Positions 7,969-35,861 of a stretch of 64,000 nucleotides of DNA are shown piece by piece (position 1 is the stretch's first letter; every line of letters begins with the position of its first letter). Position numbers and translations under genes: made by a program. The stretch lies in the NCBI GenBank assembly GCA_973895155.1, contig OZ316896.1, positions 23,393,722 through 23,457,721 on the forward strand, written 5' to 3'. The notes beneath the pieces were generated by a model. The model was given only the letters and a program-made list of their open reading frames with translations. It did not search any database and was not told the origin of the DNA. Origin of the DNA: Marsupella aquatica (lineage: Eukaryota > Plantae > Marchantiophyta).

Positions 7969-8230
7969 GGGGGACCGTGGCTTCCTGGATGATCTGACTG
8001 TTGGATGCCCTCTTATGTTGGGCTTGGGCTTGTGTTGGTGATTGATTTTCCCTTTTCCACTGTTTGGTGGTCAGGGGGCTGTGGGATATGCGCTGGTGAT
8101 GTGTGCCTGTGCGCTGTGTGTTCGGCTTTGTTTTATGTCGCTTGGTCTGGCCTTCTGGTCTGTCTGTTTGCCCTCCCCGTGGGGCTTTTCGCGGGGGAAC
8201 CAAAAATTATAAAAATGTTCCCATTCCAAG

Positions 8231-11056: not shown

Positions 11057-11147
11057 ACTGTCCCTGCTACTGCTCCCCACTTAGCCGTTTCATCCAATTG
11101 GTCTACATCCTTTACTTCCTCCGGAATTGCAGCTAAAAAGGTGGATT

Positions 11148-13043
11148 CTATTGTAAAGCAGTCCTCGACCTCTTCGTCTTCTTCTTCCAAGTCACCTTCC
11201 ATTGGTTCTTGCCATAATCCGCTGGGGGGTACCTCTGTATTGCCGGAGCCCTCCCTTCTCCTTCCGTTGATGTTGACGAAGAGTCCATCTTTTCCTCCGT
11301 AACCTTCCCTTTATTTTTGGCCAGCCCATCCCACCTTTCCTTCCTTCTGGTAGATCGAGTAGAGACCCGGTAGCAATCATGATCTAAATCCTCCTCTGAG
11401 AAGGTTGATAGGGCTTCGGCCTCATCATCAGATGGTACGAACTCTGCCTCGGCATCCTCTTGCCATCCTAGTTCGATGTGGTTGATTTGAACTCCTCCGG
11501 GGGTAGTACCTGGCGGTAAGATCTTGACCGGCAAAAGTTTATGATTTGCGGCCAGGCCTGCCAACCAAGTAGGACATTGCCCTAGCATATGACCTTCCTG
11601 TCGGCATCCCATACATAGCTGAGCTGGTTGTCCATCACCCTGTTTGCGTGCATTCGGGCATTCTCTAGCAAAATGGCCAGGTTGACCACAATTATAGCAC
11701 GCCGCAAATCTTTGCACATTCGGCCTAGGAGGTACTGACGGGTTCTGAATAATCCGAGGATACATCTCTCCTGGATTGTTCCTTAACCCTGACCATAGAG
11801 ATGCAGGTCTGTTGGATAGGTCTTGTGCTCCAGTCTCACTGATGCCGAAAACACTATCAGCAGCATCTCCTAAAAAGTACTCTACTTCTCCCTGACATGG
11901 TCTGATCTCGGCCACATGCCGAACATGATTAGTATTAAGCTTAGGACACGCATCTTTATGGTGTCCGGTTTTATAACATAAGGCACACCATACAGAGCTA
12001 TCCTCCTGTACTACCTTCTTCTTCGGTTTTACCTCTACAATGATAGCCTTAAGTTGCTCGGTAAGGGCTACGATGTTATCTGGTGGCTTAGCCTCCAGCT
12101 TGACTTTCGTCTTCCCTCTCCTTCTGCCCTTCCTTTTGGTAGTTTTTTCTTCTTCAGAACTAGAAGATGACTCACTCTTGCTACTCCCACTATCCGAGCT
12201 TGACTTATCACTTCTAGACTTCTTAGAATGTTTCTTCTTCTTATCTTTTTTCTTATGGGGTGATCCCTCTTCTGATGAGGAACTCTCAGACTTAAGCTGT
12301 TTCTTCCGGCTTGTGATATCTGCATTAATGTATAATTGAATATCCTTAATTGCTTCGGCTAAAGTCTCCGGGTTCTCCTTCCTAATTGCAAAACTCATCT
12401 TCTGTGGCAAAGCATTCACCAACCATTGAAGTTGCATACCTTCAGATGCATTGGTCTTTGTACGTCTTACCAGTTTCTGAAAGCGTTGCAAGAACTTCCT
12501 GAAGGATTTGTTCTCCTTGAACCGAAGTCGTCCCAACTTCGGCACTGCTAGTTCTGAAGTTCCAATTGGTCGAAACTCCTTAACAAAGAGTGTTTTGAAG
12601 ATATCCCAGATGGCTTGATCTTCCACATCTAATGCTCTGTACCAAGGCCTAGCCTCACCCTTGAACAGGCCGGGAAGAATCTGCATCTTGATGGCCGATT
12701 CTCCATTTGCTGCAGCGGTTCCCTCGAAATCATCCAACCATTCGTCCGAATCCTCATCTCCTCTCCCATGAAATGCCTTGTAATGTATGCGCGACCGCTG
12801 GCTCAATCTGGTCCCTGGCCTCTCGTCTGGCCGTGCCTCTGGTTCCCCCATGTCGGTTGGAGACTCACTTCTCCTTACCGACTCTTCTTCTGGTATGTCT
12901 TCTTCGACGCCACTTCCAGTTTCGGAGCTACCAGCTCTTTCTGCCCCTCTCAGTCGCTGTGTATCATGCCACCCGGCAAGCTGCTGCAGTCGAGCTCTCT
13001 CCCGTTGAATCACTCTTTCTTCCCTCGGCGTAAGGTCAGTCAT
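11148..13043 (-). CDS. Gag with three CCHC zinc knuckles; 3' end corrupted by a deletion that removes the protease
   Basis: Capsid-like FHGRGDEDSDEWLDDF...GEARPWY. Knuckles CALC..GH..DAC, CYNC..GH..REC and CMGC..GH..GQC. Confidence 0.9.
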   Translation of the reverse strand: MTDLTPREERVIQRERARLQQLAGWHDTQRLRGAERAGSSETGSGVEEDIPEEESVRRSESPTDMGEPEARPDERPGTRLSQRSRIHYKAFHGRGDEDSDEWLDDFEGTAAANGESAIKMQILPGLFKGEARPWYRALDVEDQAIWDIFKTLFVKEFRPIGTSELAVPKLGRLRFKENKSFRKFLQRFQKLVRRTKTNASEGMQLQWLVNALPQKMSFAIRKENPETLAEAIKDIQLYINADITSRKKQLKSESSSSEEGSPHKKKDKKKKHSKKSRSDKSSSDSGSSKSESSSSSEEEKTTKRKGRRRGKTKVKLEAKPPDNIVALTEQLKAIIVEVKPKKKVVQEDSSVWCALCYKTGHHKDACPKLNTNHVRHVAEIRPCQGEVEYFLGDAADSVFGISETGAQDLSNRPASLWSGLRNNPGEMYPRIIQNPSVPPRPNVQRFAACYNCGQPGHFARECPNARKQGDGQPAQLCMGCRQEGHMLGQCPTWLAGLAANHKLLPVKILPPGTTPGGVQINHIELGWQEDAEAEFVPSDDEAEALSTFSEEDLDHDCYRVSTRSTRRKERWDGLAKNKGKVTEEKMDSSSTSTEGEGRAPAIQRYPPADYGKNQWKVTWKKKTKRSRTALQ

Positions 13044-13090
13044 TACCTACGCTTCCGTTCTAACTTCATATCTCACGGCTTAAGAAATGC

Positions 13091-13108
13091 CCCCTCCATC
13101 TAGCGCCA
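13091..13108 (-). other. Primer-binding site, tRNA-Asn-like
   Basis: TGGCGCTAGATGGAGGGG lies 4 nt from the LTR end. It matches my recollection of the plant tRNA-Asn 3' end (CCCCTCCTTCTAGCGCCA) with one mismatch. Confidence 0.75.
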
Positions 13109-13112
13109 AAAA

Positions 13113-15343
13113 TGTGGTGCGTCCCATGGCTCCCTAAACCCAAGAAACCCCCCAGCTCAAGCCGATTCCCGCAGGTTTTGCGCTTGGCGAGGCCGTTTCC
13201 GCGGCTTAGCGGCATGGGACGCTGCTAACCTCTACTACTACTGTTAACATTTTACACACATATACTGGACAGATCCTTCATCGGGTCATGAGATACGTAG
13301 CCGGCCTAATCTAGGCCTTCCCCTGTCTTCCCCTCCATCTTGTTAGGTATGTTTGGATTCCACGGCCGGAATGATCCCCAATAGGCTTGGTTAAGCCGCT
13401 AAGACCTCTCTTAGCTCGACACATCCAACTCTCACTCCCCTGCTTACTTTCCTTCCTTCTGGTTGATGTGGGCACTCTTCACACAAGTTAATGCGACACA
13501 CAAATAGCAAAATGACTCATTCTGACTGAGTCATACCATGCACTTGCCATATAAACAGTACATCTCATACACAAGCTCTGCGAACTAAGCCGTGAGGCCA
13601 ACTCTATTCAGCTCTTAGGCATGAGGAAACATGAATATACACAAGGGTCACTGTATGACTAACCGAGAGCTTCTCGTACTACTTGATCCCAGCCCGGCTG
13701 GTGCAAACTAAAAACTTGCTAAAGAAGAGGCCCTGAGCTCCCCGCTGCCCAGGTACTTATCCTGGTAGTGGATCCGCCATTCTTTGCATCGTAAGCCTAA
13801 TCTACCTAACAGTAATCTACTTGCCCGAATCTACCTATGTACAGCAAGGCAGGAGCACAAGTGTTGCTCCTACCAGTGGAACCGCAATCCCACTAAGCTA
13901 AGTGTCAGGGCCGCTCCTGGTCCTGATCCTAATCCTAAACTTGGAGATCAGCGCCCGCCCTGCCCACTCACGCCTCCTCCCTCCACGTCCGCCCTCCCTA
14001 AAAGGAACGGCGCCCTTGCACCGTCACGACACCGGTGGAGGATCCTTAATGGACGCCCCCAACGCTTCCTCCTCAGCCACTGCCGTAGGTTCATTCTCTG
14101 ACAGATTACCTGCCCTTGACTGAGTCAACTCTCCATCGGCCTGACTGGGTCCACCATCGGCGTCGGCATCGGCTCGGGAATCGGTTACGGCCTCAGCCTC
14201 GGCTACGGTCTCCCCAGCCTGCTCAAGAGGCGGATCTGGAATACCGGCCTCATTACTGAGTAGTTCGGCTTGGGCCGCACCACCCCCACCTATGATGATA
14301 GCGGGATCTATTGCCGTATTCATGCCGGAGGATGGTGCTGGTTCTACCTCCTTGGTCACCACGGCTTGTGGAGTCGGATTACTCCTTGACCCTGAAGGTT
14401 TCCGCTTTTTCTTCTTTTCTGGTTCGGCAGCTGGTCCCTTCCCCTTCCCACTTACTTCCGGCACTGGTGCAGGTGGCGCGGCTTTTTCTTTGGCCAGTAC
14501 CACTCCTGGTAACTTGGTTGCCCCAATTGGAGTTGGGCCTGATGAAGACAAGCACTTAAATACTGCGGCTTGTTTCTTCAGCCGCTCCGTTTGGTTGTCG
14601 GCCCGCCGCTGGAGGTTCTCCATCTTCCTCGTGATTTCCTCCAACTCCTCCTGGGTCTCATCCAGGTCCTTGCATGCCTCCTCTAGTTCCTTCTGGGCTT
14701 CCTCCTGTTCTTGTTTCAAGGTAGTCCTCTCCTCCCGGGTTGCTCTTAGCTCCTTGTCGAGCTCTGCAATGATGACAGACTCCATCTGGTTCATCTTGGC
14801 GTAAGTCTGTTCGAGCATCTCGTCCTTCTCCCTTAGGTCGGCCTTGAAGCTGGCCGTCAGGGACGCAAGCTCCTGCTGCAGCGCCATAATCCCTTGATAG
14901 GATTTCCCTAACTCGGCCTCCTTCTGCTCAAGGGCTCCGCGGATTTTCTCGAGCTCCCCCTTCAACGCCCATTCCTTTCTTTGGGTCTCCGCCATGGCCC
15001 GGCTGTTGGCTGTTATGTGGGCCTCCTCTGTATTCTTCAGCTCTTGCTTCCACTTCTCCCTCTCTTTGATCATGTCGGCCAACTCTCCCTGCGTCTGAGT
15101 CAGTTTATCCTTGATATTCTGATTATCAGCCTGCGCGGTGTCCAACTGCCCCTGCATGATGTTCAGCTCATGTCGTTTAATCCGCAGTTCATCTTGGGCT
15201 TTCTTGGCCGCCCTTAGATCTTCAATCTCGGCTTCCATCCTCCTAAGCCGCCGAATGACCTCGTCCTTCTTGCTTCTCTCTAAAGCCACCGCTTCTTCTA
15301 ATTGGTGCTTCTCCAACTGCTCCCTATGGAAAAAGGGTCCTAC
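13113..15343 (-). repeat. 5' LTR of element 1 (3' half only)
   Basis: Ends ...GGACGCACCACA next to the PBS. Near-identical to the reverse complement of about 23190-25422. Cut at 15343 by the family-B LTR. Confidence 0.92.
14024..15343 (-). pseudogene. C-terminal coiled-coil part of the LTR-encoded protein (truncated)
   Basis: The 430-aa ORF is nearly identical to the last 430 aa of 21136-24510. Confidence 0.88.
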
Positions 15344-18300
15344 TGTGATGCCGCCGGTACGGCGGTTAATGAGTGATTCAGTCTAACTGCGCTCGGCACG
15401 CGCGTTAGGTGGGTCTTAGGCCGCTATTCTTAGCATAACGATAGTATTTAGGTAATCATTAGGGGTAGGACATCATTAGGCAATAAGGGGGACTTCAGGT
15501 TCGGGCTGGCGGCGGGTCGCTATTCGCACACCCGGATTACGAGCGTGGAGGGGCCCCTCCCTCGGGTCCGTATAACGAACTTAAGGAAGCGGCCACTGAC
15601 GCACGCTGACTCAGACCGGCGGAGTGGCCGGTACACCACAAGCATGAGCGGTTCAACCTACGGGCGTCGAGGAGACGTCGGGGATCGACAAGCCCTCAAA
15701 GTATAAAAGGGGAGCCAACCCTTTGTAGTGCACCAGTCCATCAGTCCGCGCGCCAGCTTCGACCCCAGCTCTCTCGTTCTCTCTAGGTCGCCACTACTAT
15801 CTCCTCTGAATGTCGCACACGATCCTCTCCAGCTCGGCCATTTGATTCTGGACGCAGTTCCTAGCTACCGGAAGGCACTTGGCCGATTCATTGAAACACG
15901 CCAACCCGCGCTGATACGAGATCGAACGCGAATACGAGAGAGCCATCCGCCTAGCAGGACGACACCACTACGTCCTTAACTTTGACTACCCGTCTCAGAG
16001 CGAGCTTTACCGACCAGCTGAGGTATCTAGGTACTTCTTCAACAGAGACAAATATATCGGGTTCTGGGAAGCATTGCTTCGGCTTCCGGACGAGGTCTTC
16101 AATATCCCGGGTACAATCGACCTGCAGCGACATCACTTCGACCACATCCCTGCCCAGGTTTGGGCTGTCATTAACGGCGAGTCCAGTACCAACCGTTCGA
16201 CAAGGGCATCCGTACTCGCTTCAGAGAACTTCTACCAGCACCTGCAGAGCTTCATGGGAACTCGGCCATCAACCAACATGACCAACTCAGCCGGGCCCGT
16301 ACCCGTACCCGTACCCATACCCGTGCCCATGCAACCCCAGCCTCAACCTCAGCTTCAGCTTCAGCCGCAGCCTCAGCCTCAGCCGCAGCCTAGCCAAACC
16401 CCACCACCTATCACCCAGCCAGCACAGGTACGCTCTGTCATCAACGCTGTGGATCTTAGCGATGACGACGAGGCTACCCCACCCTTGACCAGGCGGCCCA
16501 GAGGAACAAGCGCTCGGGGGGCCGACACTATATCGTCCCCACCCCCTGCTCTGACCCCAGGAGCGGCCCCAGCAGACAACATAGTGACCGTGGCCGCCCC
16601 GGGCCCGTTACCAACCGCAGTGGCACTCCCCAGGCCCGATCGGGAGGATGGGGAAGTATCACCTTCCCCGAGTCAGTCACGGGGAAAGAAGAGGAAGGAA
16701 TCCGCCACTGCGTCCGGGTTACCGTTGGCCACGGTAGCCGTAGCCAAGGTGACGATGCATCGCATGGGGGAAAACGTTCATAGCAACATCCTCCATCCCA
16801 AGCATGCGGTGTACCTGAAGACTCAGGGATTTGAGCACCTCACCTCTCTCCCCTGGAACACTTGCAGGTACTACGGGGAGGACATGACAGAATTCGTCAA
16901 GAATTATGACGACGTATGTCAATAGACTCGGCTGCGGGGAAGGAATATGTCCCTCACAGAAGAACGGCTCAAGATGATCTTCGGGTTACCCGAAGGTGAC
17001 CATCAAGTCGAATCACGGGCTCCCGGGGGCAAGGGGGCCAAGTACCAATCTTCAAGTTTTCCCTCAGAGGGATCAGTAGACAACGGGTTCGTGATGAGGA
17101 CCTGCCTCATGCCCGAGATAGCTGAGCGGCTGGAGTTCCAGAGGTACGCTCTCCACATGATGGAACCCCGGGGGGAGATCTCCGCCGCCCAGGTTATCCA
17201 GGTCGAGAACTATCGACCTAGGAAATGGGCGTCGTACTTCGCTAAGAAATTCCATGAAGAGATGGAGCGGCGAAGGAAGACGCTGTACATTGGCGGGAAG
17301 GCGTATTTCGCTAGCCACATCGAAATCATTCTTGAGTGGTACGCCCGGTTTGATCGACGAACCCTTCCCCGCATCAACGTTACAAAGCTGGTCCCAGCTA
17401 GGTGGGTTTTTCCGGCATTGGAGAGACGGCCCCAACCCGAGGCCCGAAGTCCAGTGGACACGCCAGCTTCACCCACCCCACCTCCACAAATAGCTGTAAT
17501 CGTAACCGAGGAGGCGCCGGAGGGGTCGGTCGTCGCAACCGTTGATGCGACCCAACTAGCCGGGCTAAGTACAGAAGTTGGTACGGCAGAGGTCTTACCC
17601 GAACCCGGGTCTCCCAAGGACCCGTCGGTGGCAATTCCGGAGAACCGGACATTGCTGCAGGAGGACACTCCAGCCCCTTCCAACGTTATGTCCCCAGGGC
17701 TGGACGTCACTGCCCCGGCCCCTGCGCGTGTTGATGTCTGCCCGTGCCCAAATCCGGACAGGCACAACTTGGACCACCCAGAACTCTTCGTACAGGGTAC
17801 GTTTTTGAACGGGCTTCTGGGAGATTTCTCTCATCAAATTGCCCGGGATACCGGGGAGTTCATGGCCCGGAAGGTAGCCTGTTTCTTCAATCAGGAGTTG
17901 GTTGCCGCCGTAAAGGCAGGTCGGGCCCAGTCGGAGGCCCTTCAGAGGATAGAGCGGTACCGGGTGGAGTCCGTGTACCTAAAGAATGAAGTGGCGGCTC
18001 AAGAGGCTGAGCTTCTGCAACTGCGACCCAAGGTTGCAGCCGCCGATGAGTTGTTAGCAAAGGCGTACGCTCTTACCGCCCTAGCCGAACAGGCCAAAGC
18101 TGGGAACGAGGCCGAGATTACACGACTCCGGAACCAGATTGACAGTTTGAAGAAACAAGCTGTCACCTGGCAGAAAGACCTGGAGGAGGCCGAGGAGCGA
18201 GCCCAGCGGGACGCGACGGAGATAGCCACGCTGCAGGCCGAGATGGCGCGGCTCCAAACCGAGGCCGAGAAGCAGGACCAGCTGGCGGGTAAACTGACGA

Positions 18301-19379
18301 GCGACGCCCAGCAGTTGGAGGAGGCATGTCAGGAGGTAGCAGAGGAGACGGACGCGGCGAGGCGAGAGAACGAATCTCTGCTGGACCAGGTCCAGCTCCT
18401 CAAAGCGGACAATGACAGGCTTCGAAGGCAGCGGGATGGCCGTTCCCATTCGGGCGGCTCTGGCAAGCGTGCTAGGCATTAGCGGCGGAGTAGGAATAGA
18501 TTAGGATTAGGATTGGCTTAGTCAGGCTCTTGGGACAGGCACCTGCCTTAGGTACAGCAGCGCTGCCCTGCTGTCTAGCCTGCGTAGATTAGGATCTTCT
18601 AATAAGACACAACCATTTTCCGGCCTGACTGTCAGCTTAGTTAGGACCTTAGTCAGCGAATCTTCGGCGAGAGGACACCCCGTCCCTCGGCTCTTAGTAT
18701 TTAGTGCACCCCTCGGTAGAGGCAGGGGGGGTTTTTAGTTTCAGAGTCGGACATCCGCGGGACATGCGGGGAGTCCCGACCTCTGGGAATGACAGAGTAC
18801 CAAGGGGAGGGGGTAGGACTAAGCTCGTCGGGCGAGTGCGGAGCCGGGCTCCGTTGTAGTGTGCACCCTCGGCCTTGAACCTGTGCATTCCAGGGCTGTC
18901 GTGTCAACTAAGTGTACGCATATGTTCCCTTTGTAGTAAAATCCTTTCCCATCATTTTCCTTCGTGTAAATCGAGATTGTATGCATGTGTGCGCATATGT
19001 GTGTGGGTTTCTCGTATATGGGTGGCAGCGCCAGGCCGAACGCACTACCCGAGACGTGCATAGGGTGCAGCCTGTGGGTAAGTGGTTGCGAGCACGGGTT
19101 GAGGACCTATATCATCGAATCCGGATCGAAGGTGGACAGCACGAAGGCTTAGAAGCCCTTAAGCCGGGGTCGATCCTGCTATCGACTAAGGTACGTTCCG
19201 GCGGCGGAACACAAACCATACCTAGGAGGTGTCCATATTTAGCAGTATGCGCACTTAGCGCTAGTTTACGAGAATAAGGTGCATTACGTGCTTCCCTTCC
19301 TGCCCGAACCCTCAGATTTACGAGGGATGTGCCCGTCTAAGCTGAAGTCTGAGTTAAGGCCGAAGCCTACGACGTGACA
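15344..19379 (+). repeat. 5' LTR of a family-B gypsy element (about 4.0 kb)
   Basis: Starts TGTGATG exactly where family-A homology breaks. Ends CGTGACA and is followed by a PBS and gag. The right end is slightly uncertain (12-nt gap to the PBS). Confidence 0.8.
15810..18482 (+). pseudogene. Family-B LTR-encoded protein (about 890 codons, three premature stops), homolog of the family-A LTR protein
   Basis: ATG 15810 and ORFs 16074 and 16947 are all in one frame. Motifs LPW..EFV..TRLRG..LTEERLKMIFGLP..NGF..TC align to family A. C-terminal coiled coil. Confidence 0.8.
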
Positions 19380-19502: not shown

Positions 19503-19900
19503 ATGCCCGTCACTCGTGCTCAAGCAGCTTACTTGAGGAGATTGACCAGCGAACGAGAAAGTGCAACCACAACAAGCTCCGACTCGTCGGGCTCGGAGGA
19601 CTCGCAATCGTCCCGACGTATGAACATACCCCCGGGATCTTCGGGGTCTGGTTCGACCGGCCCTGCTGCGGTTCCACCACCACCACCACCACCACCACCT
19701 ATGGCAGCCGCTCCACCGGTGGCCCGCGCTGCTCAGGCGCCTCCACAAATATCACAACGATCGCGATTTCATTATCGACCTTTCAAAGGGCGTCATGGGG
19801 ATGATCCGGATGAATGGTTGGATGAGTTTGAAGCCACTGCTAAAGCTAATGGGGAAGACGCCATTAAGCTAACCGTCCTCCCGGGAGTGATGCGGGGAGA
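19503..19900 (+). pseudogene. Family-B gag N-terminus, truncated by a deletion junction
   Basis: SQRSRFHYRPFKGRHGDDPDEWLDEFE aligns with family-A gag SQRSRIHYKAFHGRGDEDSDEWLDDFE. Confidence 0.85.
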
Positions 19901-20758
19901 ATGATCCCTTGATAGGCTTTCCTTAATTCGGCCTCCTTCTGCTCAAGGGCTCCGCGGATATCCTCAAGTTCCCCTTTTAATGCCCTCTCCTTTCTCTGGG
20001 TCTCTGCCATGGCCCGATTGTTGGCTGCTAAGTGGGCCTCCTTTGCGTCCCTTAGCTCCCGCTTCCACTTCTCCTTTTCCTTGACTGCGCCGGCCAACTC
20101 TCCTTGGGTCCGAGTCAGTTTATCTTTGATAATCTGATTGTCAGACTACGCGGTATCCAACTGCCCCTGCATGATGTTTAGCTCATGCCGCTTGATCCGT
20201 AGCTCATCTTGGGCTTTCTTGGCCATCTTCAGGTCTTCCACCTCGGCTTCCATCTCCCTAAGCCATTGGATGACCTCGTCCTTCTTGTTTCTCTCCAAAG
20301 CCACCACTTCTTCTAATTGGTGCTTCTCCAACATCTCCCTCTGGAAAAAGGGTCCCTGCTCCAACTCCTCCCCAAAGATGCTGAGCGCAAGTTCCCCACA
20401 CATCTCCCCGTACTCCATGGCTCTATCTTTAGCATAGGTGAAGTAAGTAGAAGTCATCGGCATCAACCACCGCGGCCTCTATTCCCAAGCCGTCTTGCGG
20501 ATCTCTTCTATGGTGGCAAGAGGGTTGTTTCTTTTTTCGGCAAGCCGCCTGATGTCCTCCGGCCAATCTCCTCCTGGCAAATCTTTTTCCCTAGCCAGGG
20601 CTGCCTTCTCTTCCTCCCTAAGTTGCTTCTGAAACTCTTGTGCCGTTTGCTTGATGCCGTCAAAGCTTGGGGGAGCGACATCTGGTGGGGGAGACTCGGG
20701 GCTACTCTGCTGGGTGGGGTCCCCTCGAACTACTCTTGGAAGCGTGGGGATAAACCGG

Positions 20759-23700
20759 TGTGATGCCTAGACAGGAATCACTCGGCCAGTTAAGTGGGTA
20801 AACCAGGAAGGCACCCTAGGAACACCTTAGTATAGGGACAAAACAAGGAAAATATAAACCATTAGGGGCAACCATGGAACCCGGGCCGAGGCCGGAGGTA
20901 AGGACGCTGAGGGTGAAAACTCGATTAGGGTTAGGGCGCGTTAAGCGTCGGCAGCTAGGAAGGATCAACGGGAAGAAGGACCGGCAGAGGAGAGGGGTAA
21001 GGAGCGCTTGCAGGAGATGGTGGCTCATATTGCGAGCACGAACTAGGCAGACGACTACGGGAGGCCAACTACTGTCAGCTGCTTAGGCAAGCACTCGGGG
21101 AGAGAGTAGATATCGACGATCGACCTAAGGAGGGTATGAGCAACGTCAATCAAGCGGCACATTTCTGGGGATGCCTGTTCGAACGGGCAACTGAGTACAT
21201 CAAGACTTACGAGGACGAGGAATCAGAAAGGGCAGCTCGAGAACGGCAGGAGCTCGCTCGATTGTGGGAGCTGCAGAAGACGGCTTTCTTAGGAGGCGAA
21301 CTCATCAAGGACGAGTTCCTGTGGACGCCTACTTCCAATCAACTCGACGATCTTCTGTTTTGCAAAGACAGCGTCGTCGGCATCCAAGAGGCCATCAAGA
21401 ACTGCAACGACATACACTGGGAATTAAAGGGAAGCACGGAAAGGTGGACCCAGGCAACGGTGCTAGGAGAAACCTCCACGGCAGCAGGGATGAAGAGGAA
21501 GGGAGCCGTCAACGATGAAGCCACCCCGACAAAAAGAACGAGGTCAGCGGCACCAAAGAAGCCAGCCGAGCAGCAGAGCAGGAGGCAGGGAGAAGCCGAA
21601 GAGGAGGAGGTCGATCCCATCAAGGCCATTCCAACCAGGGATGACACCTGGAAGGGCTGGGCGGCAACCCTACCGGTGGAGGTGCAACTACATTTTGCAC
21701 GGGAGGAGGATGCATGCTTCACGGCCATGCAGACCAAGAAGTACCAAGGCTTCATGGCCGGATCCGGCTTAGAGGCCTTTGTAAGATTACCATGGCTGAA
21801 GCCGGAGGTACCGGAGTCAGACCTATTAGAATTCGTGGGGTCATGGGAACCCGAGACCAATTGCACGAGGATATATGGGAAGGATTTCTATCTTACTCCC
21901 AAGGTAATTGCCGAAGTGTTTGGCTTGCCGATAGGCAATAAGACCAAAGTTGATACCAGGAAGACCTTGCCTGACAAGGAGTTCCGGTCGTTCCCTGGGC
22001 CATCAACGAAGAATGGCTTCTTCCGGAACACCTGCACCAACCCGCACATAGGAGAGATGATCGACTTCTTGCGGGTGACCATGCATTGTAACTTGCCGAG
22101 GGCAGAGATCGGCAAGGCACAGGTCTATCTGGCAGAAAGGCCAGACCCAAGCCGGGACTACAACGGGTACCTCCTCAACCAATTGAAGAAGATCTTAAGG
22201 GAGGAGCAGCAGGTAATCGGCATGGGGAGCGTGTCGCGGCTTGGCTATCACATGCCGCTGTTGTGCCGGTATGCCAGAGGTCAGACTTTTGCCCCGGTAC
22301 TCCCCCTGCAGGTAAGGGCACCCGAGGAAGCTCCAACGCCGAGGCCGTTGGCTGAGAAGCCTCAACCACCTGTTAGCCCTACGATCGAGCAGGTGTTTAG
22401 ACCCAGGAAGGAGGACTTGCCGATGCAGCAACCAGGCATGCAGAGTCTGCTGAAACTACTGGAGAAAGAAAAGAAATCGGCATCGGCAACAACAACGGCA
22501 ACGGCAACAATGCAGGACACTACTACAGAGGTAGGCCTACACCGGCTCACAAGAGAAAACCCCTTTGCTGGAGACAAGGAGAGAATCAGGCCGGAATCCA
22601 AGCCAGGTGTTCGAATGTACGTGGGAACCTCAAGCTCTGAATCTGAGGCAGAATTGCCTGAAGCTCCTACCGACGAAGAGGAGAGGGAGAAGCCGGACGT
22701 CCAAGAGGTAGAGGAGGCAGTGGAGGACTGCAGCCATGATAATTCCGGCTATGGGTCGGACCATCACGTTCCAGGAGTAAGGACCTGTGGCCGGTTTGTC
22801 CCCACACTTCCAAGGGTAGTGCGAGGGGACCCCAACCAGCAGAGTAGCCCTGAGTCTCCCCCACCAGATGTTGCTCCCCCGAGCTTCGACGGCATAAAAC
22901 AGACGGTGCAGGAATTTCAGGAGCGAATCAGGCAGGAAGAGGAGGCAGCCCTGGCTAGGGAAAAGGATTTACCAGGAGGAGATTGGCCGGAGGACATCAG
23001 GTGGCTAGCCGAAAAAGGAAGCAAACCTCTAGCCACGATTGAAGAGATCCGCAGGACGGCTTGGGAGCAGAGGCCGCGATGGGCGATGCCGATCACTTCT
23101 ACTTACTCCACCTACGCTAAGAATAGAGCCATGGAGTATGGTGAGATGTGTGGGGAACTTGCGCTCGGCATCTTTGGAGAGGAGTTGGAGGTAGGACCCT
23201 TTTTCCATAGGGAGCAGTTGGAGAAGCACCAATTAGAAGAAGCGGTGGCTTTGGAGAGAAGCAAGAAGGACGAGGTCATTCGGCGGCTTAGGAGGATGGA
23301 AGCCGAGATTGAAGATCTAAGGGCGGCCAAGAAAGCCCAAGATGAACTGCGGATTAAACGACATGAGCTGAACATCATGCAGGGGCAGTTGGACACCGCG
23401 CAGGCTGATAATCAGAATATCAAGGATAAACTGACTCAGACGCAGGGAGAGTTGGCCGACACAATCAAAGAGAGGGAGAAGTGGAAGCAAGAGCTGAAGA
23501 ATACAGAGGAGGCCCACATAACAGCCAACAGCCGGGCCATGGCGGAGACCCAAAGAAAGGAATGGGCGTTGAAGGGGGAGCTCGAGAAAATCCGCGGAGC
23601 CCTTGAGCAGAAGGAGGCCGAGTTAGGGAAATCCTATCAAGGGATTATGGCGTTGCAGCAGGAGCTTGCGTCCCTGACGGCCAGCTTCAAGGCCGACCTA

Positions 23701-25422
23701 AGGGAGAAGGACGAGATGCTCGAACAGACTTACGCCAAGATGAACCAGATGGAGTCTGTCATCATTGCAGAGCTCGACAAGGAGCTAAGAGCAACCCGGG
23801 AGGAGAGGACTACCTTGAAACAAGAACGGGAGGAAGCCCAGAAGGAACTAGAGGAGGCAGGCAAGGACCTGGATGAGACCCAGGAGGAGTTGGAGGAAAT
23901 CACGAGGAAGATGGAGAACCTCCAGCGGCGGGCCGACAACCAAACGGAGCGGCTGAAGAAACAAGCCGCAGTATTTAAGTGCTTGTCTTCATCAGGCCCA
24001 ACTCCAATTGGGGCAACCAAGTTACCAGGAGTGGTACTGGCCGAAGAAAAACCCGTGCCAACTGCACTAGTGCCGGAAGTAAGTGGCAAGGGGAAGGGAC
24101 CAGCGGCCGAACCAGAAAAGAAGAAAAAGCGGAAACCTTCAGGGTCAAGGAGTAATCCGACTCCACAAGCCGTGGTGACCAAAGAGGTAGAACCAGCACC
24201 ATCCTCCGGCATGAATCCAGCAAAAGATCCCGCTATCATCACAGGTGGGGGTGGTGCGGCCCAAGCCGAACTACTCAGTAATGAGGCCGGTATTCCAGAT
24301 CCGCCTCTTGAGCAGGCCGGGGAGGCCGTAGCCGAGGCTGAGGCCGTAACCGATTCCCGAGCCGATGCCGACGCCGATGGTGGACCCAGTCAGGCCGATG
24401 GAGAGTTGACTCAATCAAGGGCAGGTAATCTGTCAGGGAATGAGCCTACGGCAGTGGCTGAGGAGGAAGCGTTGGGGGCGTCCATTAAGGATCCACCACC
24501 GGTGTCGTGACGGTGCAAAGGCGCCGTTCCTTTTAGGGAGGGCGGACGTGGAGGGAGGAGGCGTGAGTGGGCAGGGCGGGCGCGGATCTCCAAGTTTAGG
24601 ATTAGGATCAGGACCAGGAGCGGCCCTGACACTTAGCTTAGTGGGATTGCGGTCCCACTGGTAGGAGCAACACTTGTGCTCCTGCCTTGCTGTACATAGG
24701 TAGATTCGGGCAAGTAGATTACTGTTAAGTAGATTAGGCTTACGATGCAAAGAATGGTGGATCCACTACCAGGATAAGTACCTGGGCAGCGGGGAGCTCA
24801 GGGCCTCTTCTTTAGCAAGTTTTTAGTTTGCACCAGCCGGGCTGGGATCAAGTAGTACGAGAAGCTCTCGGTTAGTCATACAGTGACCCTTGTGTATATT
24901 CATGTTTCCTCATGCCTAAGAGCTGAATAGAGTTGGCCTCACGGCTTAGTTCGCAGAACTTGTGTATGAGATGTACTGTTTGTATGGCAAGTGCATGGTA
25001 TGACTCAGTCAGAATGAGTCATTTTGCTATTTGTGTGTCTCATTAACTTGTGTGAAGAGTGCCCACATCAACCAAAAGGAAGGAAAGTAAGCAGGGGAGT
25101 GAGAGTTGGATGTGTCGAGCTGAGAGAGGTCTTAGCGGCTTAACCAAGCCTATTGGGGATCATTCCGGCGGCGGAATCCAAACATACCTAACAAGACGGA
25201 GGGGAAGATAGGGGAAGGCCTAGATTAGGCCGGCTACGTATCTCATGACCCGATGAAGGATCTGTCCAGTATATGTGTGTAAAATGTTAATAGTAGTAGT
25301 AGAAGGTTAGCAGCGTCCCATGCCGCTAAGCCGCGGAAACGGCCTCGCCAAGCGCGAAACCCGCGGGAATCGGCATGAGCTGGGGGGTTTCTTGGGTTTA
25401 GGGAGCCATGGGACGCACCACA
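20759..25422 (+). mobile_element. Family-A solo LTR, 4664 bp
   Basis: TGTGATG...CACCACA ends with 5-bp TSD ACCGG (20754-20758 and 25423-25427). Both ends match the PPT-adjacent and PBS-adjacent termini of the proviruses. Confidence 0.95.
21136..24510 (+). CDS. Intact 1124-aa LTR-encoded protein (PMD/Transposase_32-like core, basic NLS-like clusters, long coiled coil)
   Basis: Uninterrupted ATG-to-TGA ORF wholly inside the solo LTR. Contains LLEFVGSWEPETN...LTPKVIAEVFGLPIG, KRKG..PTKRTR and KKKKRKP. No obvious transmembrane segment. Confidence 0.88.
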   Translation: MSNVNQAAHFWGCLFERATEYIKTYEDEESERAARERQELARLWELQKTAFLGGELIKDEFLWTPTSNQLDDLLFCKDSVVGIQEAIKNCNDIHWELKGSTERWTQATVLGETSTAAGMKRKGAVNDEATPTKRTRSAAPKKPAEQQSRRQGEAEEEEVDPIKAIPTRDDTWKGWAATLPVEVQLHFAREEDACFTAMQTKKYQGFMAGSGLEAFVRLPWLKPEVPESDLLEFVGSWEPETNCTRIYGKDFYLTPKVIAEVFGLPIGNKTKVDTRKTLPDKEFRSFPGPSTKNGFFRNTCTNPHIGEMIDFLRVTMHCNLPRAEIGKAQVYLAERPDPSRDYNGYLLNQLKKILREEQQVIGMGSVSRLGYHMPLLCRYARGQTFAPVLPLQVRAPEEAPTPRPLAEKPQPPVSPTIEQVFRPRKEDLPMQQPGMQSLLKLLEKEKKSASATTTATATMQDTTTEVGLHRLTRENPFAGDKERIRPESKPGVRMYVGTSSSESEAELPEAPTDEEEREKPDVQEVEEAVEDCSHDNSGYGSDHHVPGVRTCGRFVPTLPRVVRGDPNQQSSPESPPPDVAPPSFDGIKQTVQEFQERIRQEEEAALAREKDLPGGDWPEDIRWLAEKGSKPLATIEEIRRTAWEQRPRWAMPITSTYSTYAKNRAMEYGEMCGELALGIFGEELEVGPFFHREQLEKHQLEEAVALERSKKDEVIRRLRRMEAEIEDLRAAKKAQDELRIKRHELNIMQGQLDTAQADNQNIKDKLTQTQGELADTIKEREKWKQELKNTEEAHITANSRAMAETQRKEWALKGELEKIRGALEQKEAELGKSYQGIMALQQELASLTASFKADLREKDEMLEQTYAKMNQMESVIIAELDKELRATREERTTLKQEREEAQKELEEAGKDLDETQEELEEITRKMENLQRRADNQTERLKKQAAVFKCLSSSGPTPIGATKLPGVVLAEEKPVPTALVPEVSGKGKGPAAEPEKKKKRKPSGSRSNPTPQAVVTKEVEPAPSSGMNPAKDPAIITGGGGAAQAELLSNEAGIPDPPLEQAGEAVAEAEAVTDSRADADADGGPSQADGELTQSRAGNLSGNEPTAVAEEEALGASIKDPPPVS

Positions 25423-27153
25423 ACCGGCCACAGGTCCTTACTCCTGGAACATGATGATCCGACCCATAGCCGGAGTTATCATTGCTGTAGTCCTCCACCG
25501 CCTCCTCCACTGCTTGGACTCCCGGCTTCCCCTTCTCTTCTCCGCGGGTAGGAGCCTTAGGCTGTTCTGCCTCGGATTCGGAGCTTGAGGCTCCCACATA
25601 CATTTGAACTCCCGGCTCGTGTTCCGGCCTCCTCCTCTCCTTGGCTCCGGTAAAGGGGTTTTCCTTCATGAGTCATCTTAGGCCTACCTCTGGGGCAGCG
25701 TCCTGTACCGGTGGGGTTGCCGTTGCCGGTGCCGGTGCCGTTTGCTTTTCCTTCTCCAGCATCTTCAGCAGATTCTGCATGCCTGGTTGCTGCATCGGCA
25801 AGTCTTCTTTTCTTGGCCTAAACACCTGTTTGATCGTAGGACTAGCAGGCTGGTTGGGCTTCTCTGCTGCCGGCCTCTGTTCCGGAGCTTCCTCTGGTGC
25901 CCTTACCTCCAGGGGAAGTACTGGGGCAAAGATCTGACTTCGGGCATACTGGCACAACAGCGGCATGTGATAGCCAAGCCGGGATACGCTTCCCATGCCG
26001 ATCACCTGTTGTTCCTCCCTTAAGATCTTCTTCAATTGGTTGAGGAGGTACCCATTGTAGTCCCGGCTTGGGTCTGGCCTCTCTGCCAAGTAGACTTGTG
26101 CCTTGCCGATCTCTGCCCTTGGCAAGTTGCAATGCATGGTCACCCGCAAGAAATCGATCATCTCTCCGTTGTGCGGGAAGAAGCCATTCTTCGTCGATGG
26201 CCCCGAAAATGACCAGAACTCCTTGTCAGGCAAGGTCTTCTTGGTATCTACTTTGGTCTTATTGCCCATCGGCAAGCCAAACACTTCGGCAATCACCTGG
26301 GGAGTGAGATAGAAATCCTTCCCATACACCCTCGTGGCATTGGTCTCGGGCTCCCATGACCCCACGAATTCTAATAAGTCTGAATCCGGCACCTCCGGCT
26401 TCAGCCATGGGAATCTTACGAAGGCTTCCAAGCCGGATCCGGCCATGAAGCCCTGGTACTTTTTGGTCTGCATGGCCGTAAAGCATGCATCCTCCTCTCG
26501 TGCAAAATGTAGTTGCACTTCCTCTGGTAGGGTCGCCGCCCAGCCTTTCCAAGTGTCATCCTTGGTTGGAATGGCATTGATGGGATCAACCTCCTCCTCT
26601 TTGGCTTCTCCCTGCCTCCTGCTCTGCTGCTCTGCTGGCTTCCTTGGTGCCGCCGACCTTGTTCTTTTTTCCGGGGTGGCCTCTTCGTTGCTGTTTCCTT
26701 TCCTCTTCATCTCGGCTGCCGTGGATGTTTCTCCTAGCACGGTTGCCTTCGTCCACCCCTCCGTGCTACCCTTCAACTCCCAGTGCACGTCGTTGCAGCG
26801 GTTGATGGCTTCCCGAATGCCGACGATCCTGTTTTTGCAAAACAGAAGGTTGTCGAGCTGATTGGTAGTAGGAGTCCACAAGAACTCGGCCTTGATGAGT
26901 TCTCCTCCTAAGAAGGCGGTCCTTACCCCTCTCCCTGCCTGGTCTTCCCCCCCATTGGTTTACCCCTAGCTGCCGACACTTAGCGTGCCCTAACCCTAAC
27001 CGTGTTTTCTCCCCCGGTGTCCTTACCTCCGGCCTCGGCCCGGGTTCCATAGTCACCCTTAATTGTTTATATTTTCCTTGTTTTTGTTCCTATACTAATG
27101 TGTTTCTAGGGTACACTCCCGTTTTCCCACTTAACTGGCCCAGTGATTCCTGG

Positions 27154-30100
27154 CTAGGCATCACATAGCTCCCCACTTAATTGTGAAGCGTCCTTGCGAA
27201 CAACTTCATCTTCGTCCATATAGTATTCTTGAGGCGGTCGTAATGGATGCGAACTGGGTATACCTCTCCAGTAATGTTGGCTAATTGTACCGAGCCATTG
27301 GAGAACTTCATTGCTACCCTGAAAGGTCCTAACCAGCAAGTGTAAAGCTTCCCCGGAAACCTACTATACCTACTGTCATAAAGTAATACAAGATCTCCTA
27401 TGTGAATACTAACTGGTTTCAACCTCTTATCATACTGTTGCTTCATGGTATTTTGTCTATGTTCTATCCTCTCAGCTGAAATCATTCTTGCCTCTTCTAA
27501 AGCTTCTAACCTATATTCTCGCTCCTTTAGGCTTTCCTCCTCTGAGGCTCTCTCCTCAATTGTAACTTGAAATGTAGGAATCTCAAGTTGCATGGGTACC
27601 AGAGCTTCCTGTCCAAAGGTTAAGAAAAACGGTGTATGACCGGTAGTGGATTTATAGGCTAAATTGTAAGCAAAAACAGCAGCAAACAATTTATCATCCC
27701 AATCGAGTTTGTTCTGAGCTACCGTCTTGTTCAATATCTTTCCTATAATTCCATTTGCTCATTCTGTCAACCCATTTGCCTTTGGATGGTAGGGAGTAGT
27801 AGGCCTATGTCTAACTAAATACTGCTCATTTAAACGACTAATTATATCATTCAGAAAATGGGTTCCTCTATCACTAACTAATTCTAGGGGTGCACCATAC
27901 CTGGTGAAGATTTGCTCATACATGAATCGAGCCGTAGTAATTGCATCATCCTTCGTTGTCGGCCTGGCCTCTACCCACTTAGTTGCATAATCCGTGGCCA
28001 GGATTATGTACTTGTTTCTTCGAGGGTGGGTCAATGGTTTTAGGGGTCCGATGTAATCAATACCCCACTTCTCGAATGGTGCCAGAGGTAGAATAGGATG
28101 CAGTGGATGTCTTGTGGATGCCCTTGGTCCTCCCGCTCGCTGACAAGGATCGCATTGTTTGATAAACTGATAGACATCCTTGTGCAAGGTGGGCCACCAG
28201 TAACCGACATTTAATATCTTTTTAGACGTGGTTACTGGAGCAAAATGTCCCCCGGCCTCCTCCCATGCATGGCCCGTAGGGCTCATTTTACCTCTCCTTT
28301 TTCCAAACACCTTTGAATCGTGCCGCTGATTCCATGCCTGTGCAATATGCCCTTAATGCACTGATACTGTCTGACCTTCCGCAAAAAGACTGCGGCTTGC
28401 TCACGGCTGAGTCCTGGCTGTAATCTGGAAGTGCTGAGAAATTGTAAAATCTCAGGGTACCATGTATCAGCTATTTCCACAACGAATAGCTCCTCGTCGG
28501 GGAATCGATCATCGATGCAATCCGTGGCAGGTTCACCTGTGATCCTTGAAAAGAAGTCGGCATTGGCGTGTAGCTTTCCCGGCTTGATTTTTAGCTTGTA
28601 GTCAAACTCCTGTAATAGCAAAATCCATCTTGCTACCCTGCCTGTAAGGTCCGGCTTATTGACTAGGTACTTCAAACTTTCATGATCGGTATGAAAGATT
28701 ACTTTGTACCCTAGTAAATAATGCCTAAACTTTTTACATGAATAAATGATTCCTAATGCTTCTCTTTCTATGGTGGAGTAGTTTCGTTCGGCATCGGCAA
28801 GCTGGCGGCTTGCAAAGTATATGGGATGGTCCCTTCCTTTCTCATCCAACTGACTTAGTACTGAGCCGATACAGAAGCCTGAGACATCTACAAAGACATA
28901 AAAATCCTTGTTCCAGTCTGGTGCTATCATGACTGGAGCCTCTACTAACATCTGCTTCAATTCTACCACCGCTGTTACTCGTTCTGGTGTGGGTTCAAAG
29001 TCTGCACCTGCCTTGAGCATGTTGGTTAATGGTAAAGCTAGCTTGGCAAAATCCTTGATGAACGGCGATAATAACCAATGCAACCCAAGAAGGATCTCAC
29101 ATCCTTTATGTTCTTAGGTTGCATGATATCTAGCCACACTGCTAGCTTACCTTTGTCAATCTCAATGCCCTTCTTTGATACCTTGTGACCTAGTAGCACC
29201 CCCTCTGTTACTGCAAAGAAACATTTATCTGGGTGTAACTTGAGACCTACCTCTCTGCATCTCAAGAAGGTTTTCCTGAGGTATTTAGCATGTTTTGATG
29301 CCTTCCCAAACACTGCAAAGTCATCAATGAAGATTTCTATGAACTTTCTCAAGTAGTCATGGAAAATGTTCACCATTAATCGTTGGAACATCGTTGGTGC
29401 ATTACAGAGTCCAAACGACATACGATTGAAGACATAGATCCCCCATTCCGTGATGAAGGCCGTCTTGATTTGATCCTCCTGCCTGATCCTGATTTGGTTA
29501 TAACCCGAGTAACCATCCATTAATGAGTATAGTTCATGACTGGCTACCATATCTAGTACCATATCAGTAAAGGGTAAAGGAAAATGGTCTTTTAATGTAG
29601 CCTCATTCAACTTCTTGTAATCCTGACCAACCCGGATCTTTGGTTTACCATCGGGTCCAGCTTTCTTGGGAACTATCACAATTGGAGACACCTAGTCTGA
29701 GTGTAGGATTGGAGTGATGAATCTGGCTTCCACTAGTTTATCGATTTCAGCCTTGACCATCAGAGAATACTTAGGGTTCATCCTTCGAATTGGTTGTCGA
29801 AATGATTTGGCCCCTAACATGAGATAGATTCGGTGTTCTCCTAGTTTTGGGTCTACTCCCTTCAGATCTTGGTGACTCCATGCGAACACATCCTGGAATT
29901 CAATCAGTAATTCACTGATCTCTTTCTCGAGCTCAGGTGTTAGGTCCCTCCCTAAGTTCAGTTCCCTTCCTTCTCCTAAGTCGAGCTTTCGGTATTGCCG
30001 TGCTTGGATCATATTAATCTGCTTCTTCAAATTCGGGTCCAGCTCGGCTTCCAGCCTCTCCAGTCTCATACCTCCATAGACTGGAATCTCGGTTGTACTA

Positions 30101-30402
30101 GCCGAGTTGGTTGACTTAATTTCTCCCTGGTCATCAACAGACTGTTCCCTTGCCATTCTGCTTGGTTTTGATTTAGTTGTCGGCTTCCCTTCCTGACTCG
30201 GCTCTGGGTTGTTCCCATGCATCTCATCTATTCCTGCTTCCTGAGGGTCAGGCTGTCATGCTCTTCCTGCTTCTAGTAGGGCCTCAATTTGCTCTGCCCT
30301 CGAGATCGGCTTGTAAGCTGATCCCCTTGTATTTAATTTGTTGCCGATGATCGATGGCGTTGTGGATCCCGTCGGCTCTGCCACAACGCCTGAGGAAAAT
30401 CC
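27154..30402 (-). pseudogene. pol of element 2 (RT, RNase H, integrase) with stops and frameshifts
   Basis: Fragments 29692-30222, 29038-29691, 28283-29083, 27759-28310 and 27177-27734 are collinear with element 1 pol. Confidence 0.92.
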
Positions 30403-33322
30403 ACTGTCCTTGCTGCAGCTCCCCACCTAGCCGTTTTATCCAACTGGTCCACCTCTTTTACTTCCTCCAGAATTGAAGCTAAAAAGGTGGATTCTATTGT
30501 AAAGCAATCCTCGGTCTCTTCTTCACCTTCCTCCAAGTCACCTTCCATAGGTTCTTGCCATAATCCGTTGGGGGGTACTTCTGGTCCAAAGACACTTTCT
30601 TTGGTTAGGTCAGTGAGGCATTCTAGCCAACGTACTTCATCGGCTGACTCCAGTCCACTGTCATACCCATCTACTTCCCTGATGTTTTTCCTACGGTCAT
30701 CCTTAGTGTCCCAGGATACCGTGATAGAGGGGGTCCCAAAAGTGAACTCCTTCTTACCCCAATCTTCTATTACCTTGGCTAGGTACAGCCATGGTCTGCC
30801 AATTAATATTCGGAACGACGTAGGGTTCACCGGCTTCATCACTACATAGTTAATGCTAAAGAAGATTCCTCCTATCTCAGTCTTGATGCCGGTTAACACT
30901 CCCGTGGGAATGACCTGATACCCATTGGCCATGTTTAACACTCTTCCAGTCATCTCCGGCGTTAGACCCCATCCTTTTGCTGTTGAATCAATCATAATAC
31001 ATACCCCGGATCCTCCATCAATGGGTACCCGTAGTAATATTTCTCCTTGAATCATTAATGGTAATGCTGGGGCTCCTTGATCTTCTTCTATCATCAGCAC
31101 GTCGGATTTGGTTGCTACCTTGGGTAATCGTGGCTTGCCGAGAATCGCCTTCCTTAACTGCTTCCGGAAGTACGGGCTATTTTTCAAAAGTTGACCTACT
31201 ATTGCTGAGACTCTAGACTCTAGCACATCTTTAGCCAGGTCATAGGGAACTATCGGCTTCTCTTCTGGCGGTGTCTCTATCTTGGCTTCGGCCTGTTTTT
31301 CCACGCTGGTTTCCACAGCCCTTGGATCCTTCGAAGCAAACAACACTTTTGCTCATTTCACATCCTTGGCTATGGCTTCGGTATTCTCCAGGGTTTCTAA
31401 TTCTCGCAATTGTTCCTTAACACTAGCCGTAATAGAGGGGTAGAACAACTTAGGATGATCTCGATTGAAGTTGCTGTCCTGTGAAGGATTGGGCTCACTG
31501 GTGGGCTCATGGCTTACCTGTGTTGCCGACGCCTTTCCTTCCCCTTCCGTTGATGTTGACGAAGAGTCGATCCTTTCTTCCTTAACCTTCCCTTTATTTT
31601 TGGCCAGCCCATCCCACCTTTCCTTCCTTCTGGTGGATCGAGTAGAGACCCGGTAGCAATCATGATCCAAATCCTCTTCTGAGAAGGTTGATAGGGCCTC
31701 GGCCTCATCATCAGATGGTCCAAACTCTGCCTCGGCATCCGTTTGCCATCCGAGTTCGATGTGGTTGATTTGAACTCCTCCGGGGGGTACCTGTCGGTAA
31801 AACCTTGACTGGCAAGAGTTTATGATTTGCGGCCAGGCCTGCCAACCAAGTAGGACATTGTCCTAGCATATGACCTTCCTGTCGGCATCCCATACATAGC
31901 TGAGCTGGTTGTCCATCACCTTGTTTATGTGCATTTGGGCATTCCCTAGCAAAATGGCCAGGTTGACCACAATTATAGCATGCCGCAAATCTTTGCACAT
32001 TCGGCCTAGGAGGTACTGACGGATTTTGAATAATCCGAGGATACATCTCTCCCGGATTGTTCCTTAATCCCGACCAGAGAGATGCAGGTCTGTTGGATAG
32101 GTCTTGTGCTCCAGTCTCACTGATGCCGAAAACACTATCAGCGGCATCTCCTAGGAAGTACTCTACTTCTCCCTGACATGGTCTGACCTCAGCCACATGC
32201 CGAACATGACTGGTATTAAGTTTAGGACACGCATCTTTATGGTGTCCGGTTTTATAACATAAGGCACACCATACAGAGCTATCCTCCTGTACTACCTTCT
32301 TCTTTGGTTTTACCTCTGCTATTATAGCCTTAAGCTGCTCGGTAAGGGCTACAATGTTATCTGGTGTTTTAGCCTCTAGCTTGACTTTCATCTTCCCTCT
32401 CCTTCTGCCCTTCCTTTTCCTAGTTTTTTCTTCTTCAGAACTAGAAGATGACTCACTCTTGCTACTTCCACTATCCGAGCTTGAGTTATCACTTCTTGAC
32501 TTCTTAGAATGTTTCTTTTTCTTATCTTTTTTCTTATGGGGTGATCCCTCCTCCGATGAGGAACTCTCAGACTTAAGCTGTTTCTTCCGGCTTGTGATAT
32601 CTGCATTAATGTATAATTGAATATCCTTAATTGCCTCGGCCAAGGTCTCTGGGTTCTCCTTCCTAATTGCAAAACTCATCTTTTGTGGCAAAGCATTCAC
32701 TAACCATTGAAGTTGCATACCTTCAGATGCATTGGTCTTTGTACGTCTTACCAACTTTTGGAAGCGTTGCAAGAACTTTCTGAAGGATTTGTTCTCCTTG
32801 AACCGAAGTCGTCCCAACTTCAGCACTGCTAACTCTGAAGTTCCAATGGGTCAAAATTCTTTGACAAATAGTGATCTAAAAGTATTCTAGATGGCTTGAT
32901 CTTCCACGTCCAATGCTCTGTACCACGGCCTAGCCTCACCTTTGAACAGGCCGGGAAGAATTTGCATCTTGATGGCCGATTCTCCATTTGCTGCAGCGGT
33001 TCCCTCGAAGTCATCCAACCATTCGTCCGGATCCTCATCTCCTCTCCCATGAAAGGCCTTGTAATGAATGCACGACTGTTGGCTCAGTCTGGTCCCTGGC
33101 CTCTCATCTGGCCCTGTCTCTGGTTCCCCATGTCGGTTGGAGACTCACTTCTAAGACCGACTCTTCTTCTGGTATGTCTTCTTTGATGCCACTTTCAGTT
33201 ACGGAGCTACTAGCTCTTTCTGCCCCTCTCAGTCGTTGTGTATCATGCCACCCGGCAAGCTGCTGCAGACGAGCTCTCTCCCATTGAATCGCTCTTTCCT
33301 CCCTCGGCGTAGGGTCAGTCAT
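30333..33322 (-). pseudogene. gag-protease of element 2
   Basis: Gag with three knuckles, then aspartic protease motifs VPIDGGSGVCIM and ILIGRPWL. The frame ends at TAA 30333, just past the slippery site. Confidence 0.88.
30343..30402 (-). promoter_or_regulatory. Candidate -1 ribosomal frameshift signal (element 2)
   Basis: G GAT TTT CCTCA, then perfect stem GGCGTTGTGG/CCACAACGCC. The loop GCCGA is complementary to downstream TCGGC. Confidence 0.72.
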
Positions 33323-33369
33323 TACCTACGCTTCCTTCCTAACTTCATATCTCACGGCTTAAGAAATGC

Positions 33370-33387
33370 CCCCTCCATCTAGCGCCA
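33370..33387 (-). other. Primer-binding site of element 2
   Basis: TGGCGCTAGATGGAGGGG adjacent to the LTR end at 33392. Confidence 0.78.
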
Positions 33388-35507: not shown

Positions 35508-35861
35508 GAGGTGTTTACAAAAGACAGCAAACAGGAAACAGGATTTAATAACAGAAACTGGTAACAGGAAAAAAAACTGGTAACAGGAAAATGGGTGGAA
35601 TTTTTTTTGATTTTTTTTTGAATTTGTTTTTGAATTTTTTTTTTTGCGATTTTTTTTTTTCCGGTCAACCAGTTTTTTTTGCCAGCGCCCGACGCTGCTA
35701 ATAGTAGCGTCCAAAGCTAGCCAAAAATGTTGCATTGTTAATTTTTTTGGAAATAACATGTTTTAGGAGACATTTTTAAATTGCCATTTTTCCTGGTAAC
35801 AGCATTTTAAAAACAGGAAAAAAAATCTTGTTTACCTGTTTCCTGTCTCCGTCGCTATACC
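35508..35861. mobile_element. About 354-bp AT-rich non-autonomous DNA transposon (MITE; Mutator- or hAT-like)
   Basis: TSD CCTACCTCT at 35499-35507 and 35862-35870. Imperfect TIRs contain AGACAG(C/G)AAACAGG. Absent from the other LTR copies. Confidence 0.75.

Follow-up and report, generated by a model that had tools for sequence, protein, structure and literature searches.

A constrained gene inside the LTR of a Ty3/gypsy retrotransposon from a probable bryophyte, with a predicted VANC/PMD-type core

The locus studied here raises the question of what an intact reading frame of 1124 codons is doing inside the long terminal repeat (LTR) of a plant retrotransposon, and which function its protein could serve. 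The window, that is the whole stretch of 64,000 nucleotides that was analysed, is a nest of Ty3/gypsy retrotransposons, with 22,964 of its 64,000 bases being family-A LTR DNA.

The reading frame and its carrier

The following elements make up the part of the nest that concerns the reading frame:

1..15343, minus strand: family-A element E1, with truncated 5′ LTR (13113-15343), PBS, gag (11151-13046), pol, PPT and 3′ LTR (1-1815)
15344..19379 (3′ end approximate), plus strand: LTR of family B, a relative of A, containing an ORF; a PBS-like site and, at 19503, the start of gag come next
19900..35511, minus strand: family-A element E2, with truncated 5′ LTR (33392-35511), PBS, gag-PR-RT-RH-INT (27180-32850) and PPT
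20759..25422, plus strand: solo LTR A of family A, 4664 bp, TGTG..CACA, inserted in the 3′ LTR of a further member of the family
36145..38623, plus strand: solo LTR C of related family C, with a CGGCA target duplication and blocks in common with A and B
40981..45631, plus strand: second family-A solo LTR, A2, with an AGGAG target duplication and 86.6% identity to A

Solo LTR A is flanked by an ACCGG target duplication (20754-58 and 25423-27), shares 98.7% and 98.1% identity with the two LTRs of E1, and interrupts the 3′ LTR of E2, which begins at 27165. Self-comparison and inspection of the ends showed that family-A LTR ends also border the minus-strand gag-pol regions of E1 and E2, each of which has a PBS after the 5′ LTR, a PPT before the 3′ LTR and the order gag-PR-RT-RH-INT. 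With TG..CA LTRs, target duplication, PBS, PPT and this gene order all present, the carrier is a Ty3/gypsy LTR retrotransposon. A Pfam scan found neither a chromodomain nor a second RNase H in it, which would fit a non-chromovirus element without aRH. As the pol frame of family-A elements continues through the PPT into the LTR, there is no internal region for an extra ORF, and the ORF is confined to the LTR. Because of this position, a full element would have two copies of the gene and a solo LTR one.

The window also holds a LINE (DUF4283 ORF1, endonuclease, RT, zf-RVT) at 2236-8135 on the plus strand, inserted in the integrase of E1, a PPR gene of PLS type (E, E+ and DYW domains) at 51095-52505 on the minus strand, split over two reading frames, a 513-codon open frame at 58761-60299 on the plus strand with no Pfam match at E ≤ 0.001, and a 59-bp tandem repeat in four near-perfect copies at 48437-48673. 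The PPR gene is a mark of land plants, the named relatives of the ORF protein come from liverworts, and the host is probably a bryophyte.

The reading frame of solo LTR A is laid out as follows:

21136..24510, plus strand: intact accessory ORF, 1124 aa, wholly within solo LTR A and sense to gag-pol
21136..21438, plus strand: N-terminal conserved region, aa 1-101, from its profile score and a dN/dS of 0.18
21670..22290, plus strand: core domain, aa 179-385, with a predicted VANC/PMD-type fold
22603..22770, plus strand: acidic patch, aa 490-545, 30% D/E
23215..23991, plus strand: predicted coiled coil, aa 694-952, from heptad windows; dN/dS 0.29

An earlier note on this DNA, made from the letters alone, had spoken of an “LTR protein” at 21730-22270, which corresponds to aa 199-379 of this ORF, the motif that it quoted being aa 230-267 (nt 21823-21936). 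The label is borne out, since the ORF lies between the TGTG..CACA ends flanked by the target duplication. The acidic linker of that note is the patch listed above, and its coiled coil of about 250 aa is recovered at about 260 aa. The basic clusters that it described are also present (KRK at 120, KRTR at 133 and KKKKRK at 995), but they do not tightly flank the motif. The coiled coil was called by a crude heptad rule, under which none of four control gag, pol and LINE frames scored, and the region also weakly matches coiled-coil families of Pfam.

The ORF is a gene under purifying selection. Between A and A2, the dN/dS of the core is 0.107 (206 codons; bootstrap 0.056-0.188), while the same DNA read in the other two frames gives 1.08 and 1.48, so that the ORF goes beyond chance. 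All five ORF regions tested have a dN/dS below 1, the linker being at 0.26 and the tail at 0.46; for comparison, E1 and E2 give 0.09 for RT-RH and 0.08 for gag. In all four window copies with enough core, the value against A is 0.09-0.10, these pairs sharing A as reference. One might hold that the ORF is not a gene but arises from the purine-rich LTR sequence, and point to the fact that most copies within the window are broken, including that of A2, which has decayed through stops and frame breaks; the contrast between frames already largely refutes this reading, which we regard as barely credible.

Relatives and predicted fold of the core

Searching 1.84 billion proteins with a profile built from the copies in the window gave 69 representatives at E ≤ 0.001; this, together with a confident structure prediction for the core, is further evidence against a mere by-product. 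Of the 20 clusters looked up, six carry the name Calypogeia fissa and three that of Riccia sorocarpa, the only organisms named, and a deeper profile retrieved 78 proteins, all of them from Riccia sorocarpa. The link does not depend on Riccia sequences being in the profile: one built without them recovers the same domain in Riccia (with E scaled to a billion sequences, 1e-10 at best), and hhalign of the window copies against the Riccia proteins gives a probability of 97.7. Seventeen of the 78 Riccia matches are named or annotated DDE_Tnp_4, a transposase that we take to be of Harbinger type, so the core domain in Riccia often adjoins a DNA transposase, hinting that it may also be carried by a DNA transposon there, though the fusions may be gene-model artefacts. 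Core and DDE_Tnp_4 occur in the same gene models in P0050, P0056, P0099, P0123 and P0125.

The N-terminal region is also common to relatives: its score against a profile built on three database proteins is 16.6 bits, while the best of 300 shuffles reached 5.3. This second conserved region of about 100 aa was seen in P0004, P0024, P0026, P0074 and P0077-P0081 as well. Of 27 near-complete members, 21 have a net basic core, and a coiled coil is found in just 7 of the 20 long ones.

The earlier note had likened the core to the Plant Mobile Domain (PMD) and Transposase_32. By profile, the core matches no Pfam family at E ≤ 10. PF10536 (PMD) was absent from the query at E ≤ 10, from the 27 of the 69 relatives scanned at E ≤ 0.5 and from the 21 of the 76 new Riccia relatives scanned at E ≤ 0.3; as neither the query nor these 48 relatives match it, the PMD names that UniRef gives to 7 of the 78 Riccia relatives have no Pfam backing here. 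PF20167 (Transposase_32) does not match the query either, and its best score among relatives is 20.8 bits (E 4e-4) against a cut-off of 45 bits. It is nevertheless their commonest match (4/71, among the best 25 of 59 families), lies in the core where located (3 of 27 relatives) and occurs in 15 of the 21 scanned Riccia proteins (E 4e-4 to 0.21, all far below 45 bits); being closely related to one another, these Riccia proteins represent a single line, and P0045 from Calypogeia provides a second. These sub-threshold matches of relatives (E 4e-4 to about 1) cover the quoted motif, at profile positions of about 5-89. PF03078 (Athila ORF-1) and PF09331 (DUF1985) were found in neither the query nor the scanned relatives, and PF04195 not in the query. 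Atlas gave leads below 0.9 only: PF20167 and PF03078 for the core (0.87 to a cluster with 17% PF03078), and DUF1985 and PMD for a Riccia relative (0.87). By their defining tests, the protein is thus outside PF10536, PF20167, PF03078 and VANC.

In the structure comparison, Foldseek matched the core to VANC21 (PDB 9LNK and 9LNJ) over 198-199 residues, and the predicted structure has the VANC21/DUF1985-type fold. The core is therefore predicted to have a VANC/plant-mobile-domain fold, the PMD part of this statement running through the VANC21 match and the published likeness between VANC and PMD. The match has Foldseek E 0.84, TMq 0.48, rmsd 4 Å in VIA and 8% identity; these figures, along with the failure of every Pfam family to reach its cut-off, would suit a separate bryophyte transposon domain that resembles VANC21 by chance and has an unrelated function, a reading that we consider quite improbable.

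An envelope-like or movement protein was also considered, since the ORF is sense to gag-pol, follows pol in the 3′ LTR as env-like ORFs do, and has a long coiled coil. However, the highest 19-residue Kyte-Doolittle mean of the protein is only 0.82, and hence no membrane anchor is present, in line with the earlier note; a 19-residue window of at least 1.8 occurs in just 2 of 71 family proteins. Viral structures gave no significant match to the core, and this explanation is very unlikely. The top viral fold match, non-significant, was BFVD A0A890CAY5, an 805-aa viral-library protein (E 0.072, probability 0.60, TMq 0.38). Taken together, the predicted VANC21-like fold and the lack of a membrane segment support the proposal that the protein is a regulator and not an envelope.

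LTR signals and a possible anti-silencing role

Two further features of LTR A bear on how the gene might be expressed and act:

20853..20858, plus strand: TATA-like box, 283 nt before the ORF begins, a putative ORF promoter
25163..25190, plus strand: palindromic block near the LTR 3′ end (the copy in A), common to families A, B and C

LTR B has an ORF of its own at about 15915-18482 (5′ end approximate, in-frame stop at 16923), with the core followed by the coiled coil as in A. The two cores are 28.6% identical over 185 aa (E 2e-18), and the LTRs show almost no DNA likeness despite this common protein core. The one DNA feature common to LTRs A, B and C is the palindromic block, 14 bases long and 170-320 nt before the LTR 3′ end, with seven matches in the window (19196, 25163, 33638, 38290, 45372, 46136 and 62741) against none in 100 shuffles; it may be a signal used in reverse transcription, packaging or integration. 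The only TATA(A/T)A of LTR A is at 20853 and that of LTR B at 15702, likewise upstream of its ORF. LTRs B and C also share a TATA-like box with a C-run/G-run hairpin (18696-18731 and 37206-37242), which in B falls downstream of the ORF and is a candidate start of genomic RNA. One TATA upstream of each ORF and the TATA-hairpin block downstream of that of B suggest that the ORF lies in U3 under its own promoter.

LTR C lacks the ORF, its longest stop-free frame being 105 aa, and bears tandem arrays of 26 bp and 33 bp rich in TTAG at 36440-36890; it is possibly a non-autonomous partner. TTAG is the top 4-mer of these arrays, and its enrichment is absent from the rest of LTR C. On the sense strand of non-coding LTR DNA, it occurs 19 times in A against 7.4 expected and 20 times in B against 7.6 (0/300 shuffles in each case), and more weakly in A2 (13 against 8.0; 15/300 shuffles). 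None of 10 host strand-sets was enriched (lowest 57/300). TTAG was first spotted by eye in A and B, so that its excess in them is a post hoc finding, and scanning these LTRs for words without such a bias gave nothing significant; the TTAG core is thus a candidate binding target only.

Based on these data, the reading that we favour, and to which we give about half of our confidence, is that of an accessory gene in a Ty3/gypsy LTR whose protein, with its predicted VANC/PMD-fold core, would be a nuclear DNA-binding anti-silencer of its own LTR promoter. The predicted fold makes a nuclear DNA-binding protein likely. The ORF would be transcribed from the TATA box at the 5′ end of the LTR, and the protein would be imported into the nucleus through its basic clusters, bind DNA by its basic core and self-assemble by its coiled coil. 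Its targets could be short motifs of the non-coding LTR that are built around TTAG, and there DNA methylation or Polycomb marks would be lost or blocked, leaving the promoter downstream of the ORF free to fire. Against anti-silencing count the lack of tandem target arrays in A and B, the LTRs that bear the ORF, CG sites that are still hypermutable, and the scarcity of the coiled coil among long members.

The missing arrays would also suit a nuclear protein of the same fold with another task: directing integration, bringing in the pre-integration complex, or acting as a chaperone for the RNA or DNA of the element. Nuclear and replication roles are standing proposals for retrotransposon extra ORFs in PMC7264820, and a targeting factor could cause the nesting of family-A copies in one another. 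The sole solved structural match is, however, a sequence-specific DNA-binding anti-silencer, and the Riccia domain often stands beside a DDE_Tnp_4 transposase, which has no virus-like particle; we hold such a role to be unlikely, though a real contender. The protein might also bind its own LTR as a plain transcription regulator, be it an activator or a self-limiting repressor, and leave chromatin marks untouched. The acidic patch beside a DNA-binding-type core would be in keeping with this, as would the position in the LTR, where retroviral regulators are found: MMTV sag and HIV nef sit in or overlap the LTR. Moreover, silencing was the function first ascribed to host PMD proteins (PMC5418596). 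Both characterised users of the fold nonetheless oppose silencing marks, DNA methylation for VANC and H3K27me3 for MAIL1/MAIN/MAIL2, and we find a plain regulator improbable.

If the anti-silencing reading holds, a wider proposal follows, which we put forward tentatively and with some doubt: bryophyte gypsy LTRs would carry a VANC-type sequence-specific anti-silencer, solo LTRs would be self-contained anti-silencing genes that wake the family in trans, the ORF-less LTR C, with TTAG arrays where the gene would sit, would depend on that protein, and in early land plants the VANC/PMD fold would have been a mobile transposon weapon, older than VANDALs and perhaps than host MAIN/MAIL. Solo LTRs, usually taken as inert remains, may then be active genes, which LTR-masking pipelines would miss. 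If bryophyte transposons carry a diverse family of this fold, its origin would go back to early land plants, and new VANC-like proteins are candidate tools for targeted epigenome editing.

Comparison with known systems

In the literature listings searched, we found no plant LTR-internal accessory gene, no VANC-like protein from either a retrotransposon or a bryophyte, and no report of a PMD inside an LTR; a term search for extra ORFs in PMC13468544, on Tat lineages of non-seed plants, gave no match. Relative to VANC/PMD-fold accessory proteins of transposons, the place inside the LTR and the host would, by prediction, be new. The function of retrotransposon extra ORFs is left open in PMC7264820 and PMC11728184. 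With a candidate that is intact, strongly conserved and structurally linked to VANC21, and with a candidate target for it, the question becomes testable in moss or liverwort lines.

Among plant retrotransposon proteins, env-like ORFs differ by their transmembrane segment. The additional ORFs of Retand, Grande and PvRetro13 (Transposase_28, SMC-like coiled coil) are alike in encoding coiled-coil accessory proteins of non-chromovirus gypsy elements, which are nuclear (PMC7264820), but they are antisense and internal, whereas the ORF described here is sense, in the LTR and without PF04195. Extra ORFs of the Transposase_32/Athila ORF-1 type share the sub-threshold PF20167 likeness at the motif, over the first half of the profile only; in sunflower, an Athila ORF on the 3′ side is in sense orientation, contains PF20167 and has a predicted NLS (PMC11728184). 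These ORFs have been described between pol and the 3′ LTR, and not inside an LTR with pol crossing the PPT.

PMD (PF10536), found as PMD-A in Gypsy elements and in host MAIN, MAIL1 and MAIL2, is structurally like VANC according to published modelling. PMC5418596, a survey of angiosperms only, reports PMD-A on Gypsy elements and leaves open whether PMD arose in Gypsy or in host genes; 57% of Ogre elements carry PMD-A. The host proteins MAIL1, MAIN and MAIL2 counteract H3K27me3 by way of promoter motifs.

For VANC of DNA transposons, it is established that a plant transposon protein can counter silencing in a sequence-specific way: VANC binds short motifs in non-coding DNA of the element that encodes it and brings about methylation loss (PMC5735166). 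PMC13547354 calls VANC dicot-specific, proposes that it derives from a captured MAIN-like gene, and predicts that VANC and the Athila domain self-assemble via coiled coils. VANC21 of Arabidopsis VANDAL21 (DUF1985) resembles the protein studied here in its predicted core fold, in being a transposon-encoded accessory gene and in its coiled coil beside the core. It differs in residing on a MuDR DNA transposon, whereas the present ORF lies in a Ty3/gypsy LTR of a probable bryophyte, and VANC has tandem target motifs in the non-coding DNA of its element, unlike the ORF-encoding LTRs A and B.
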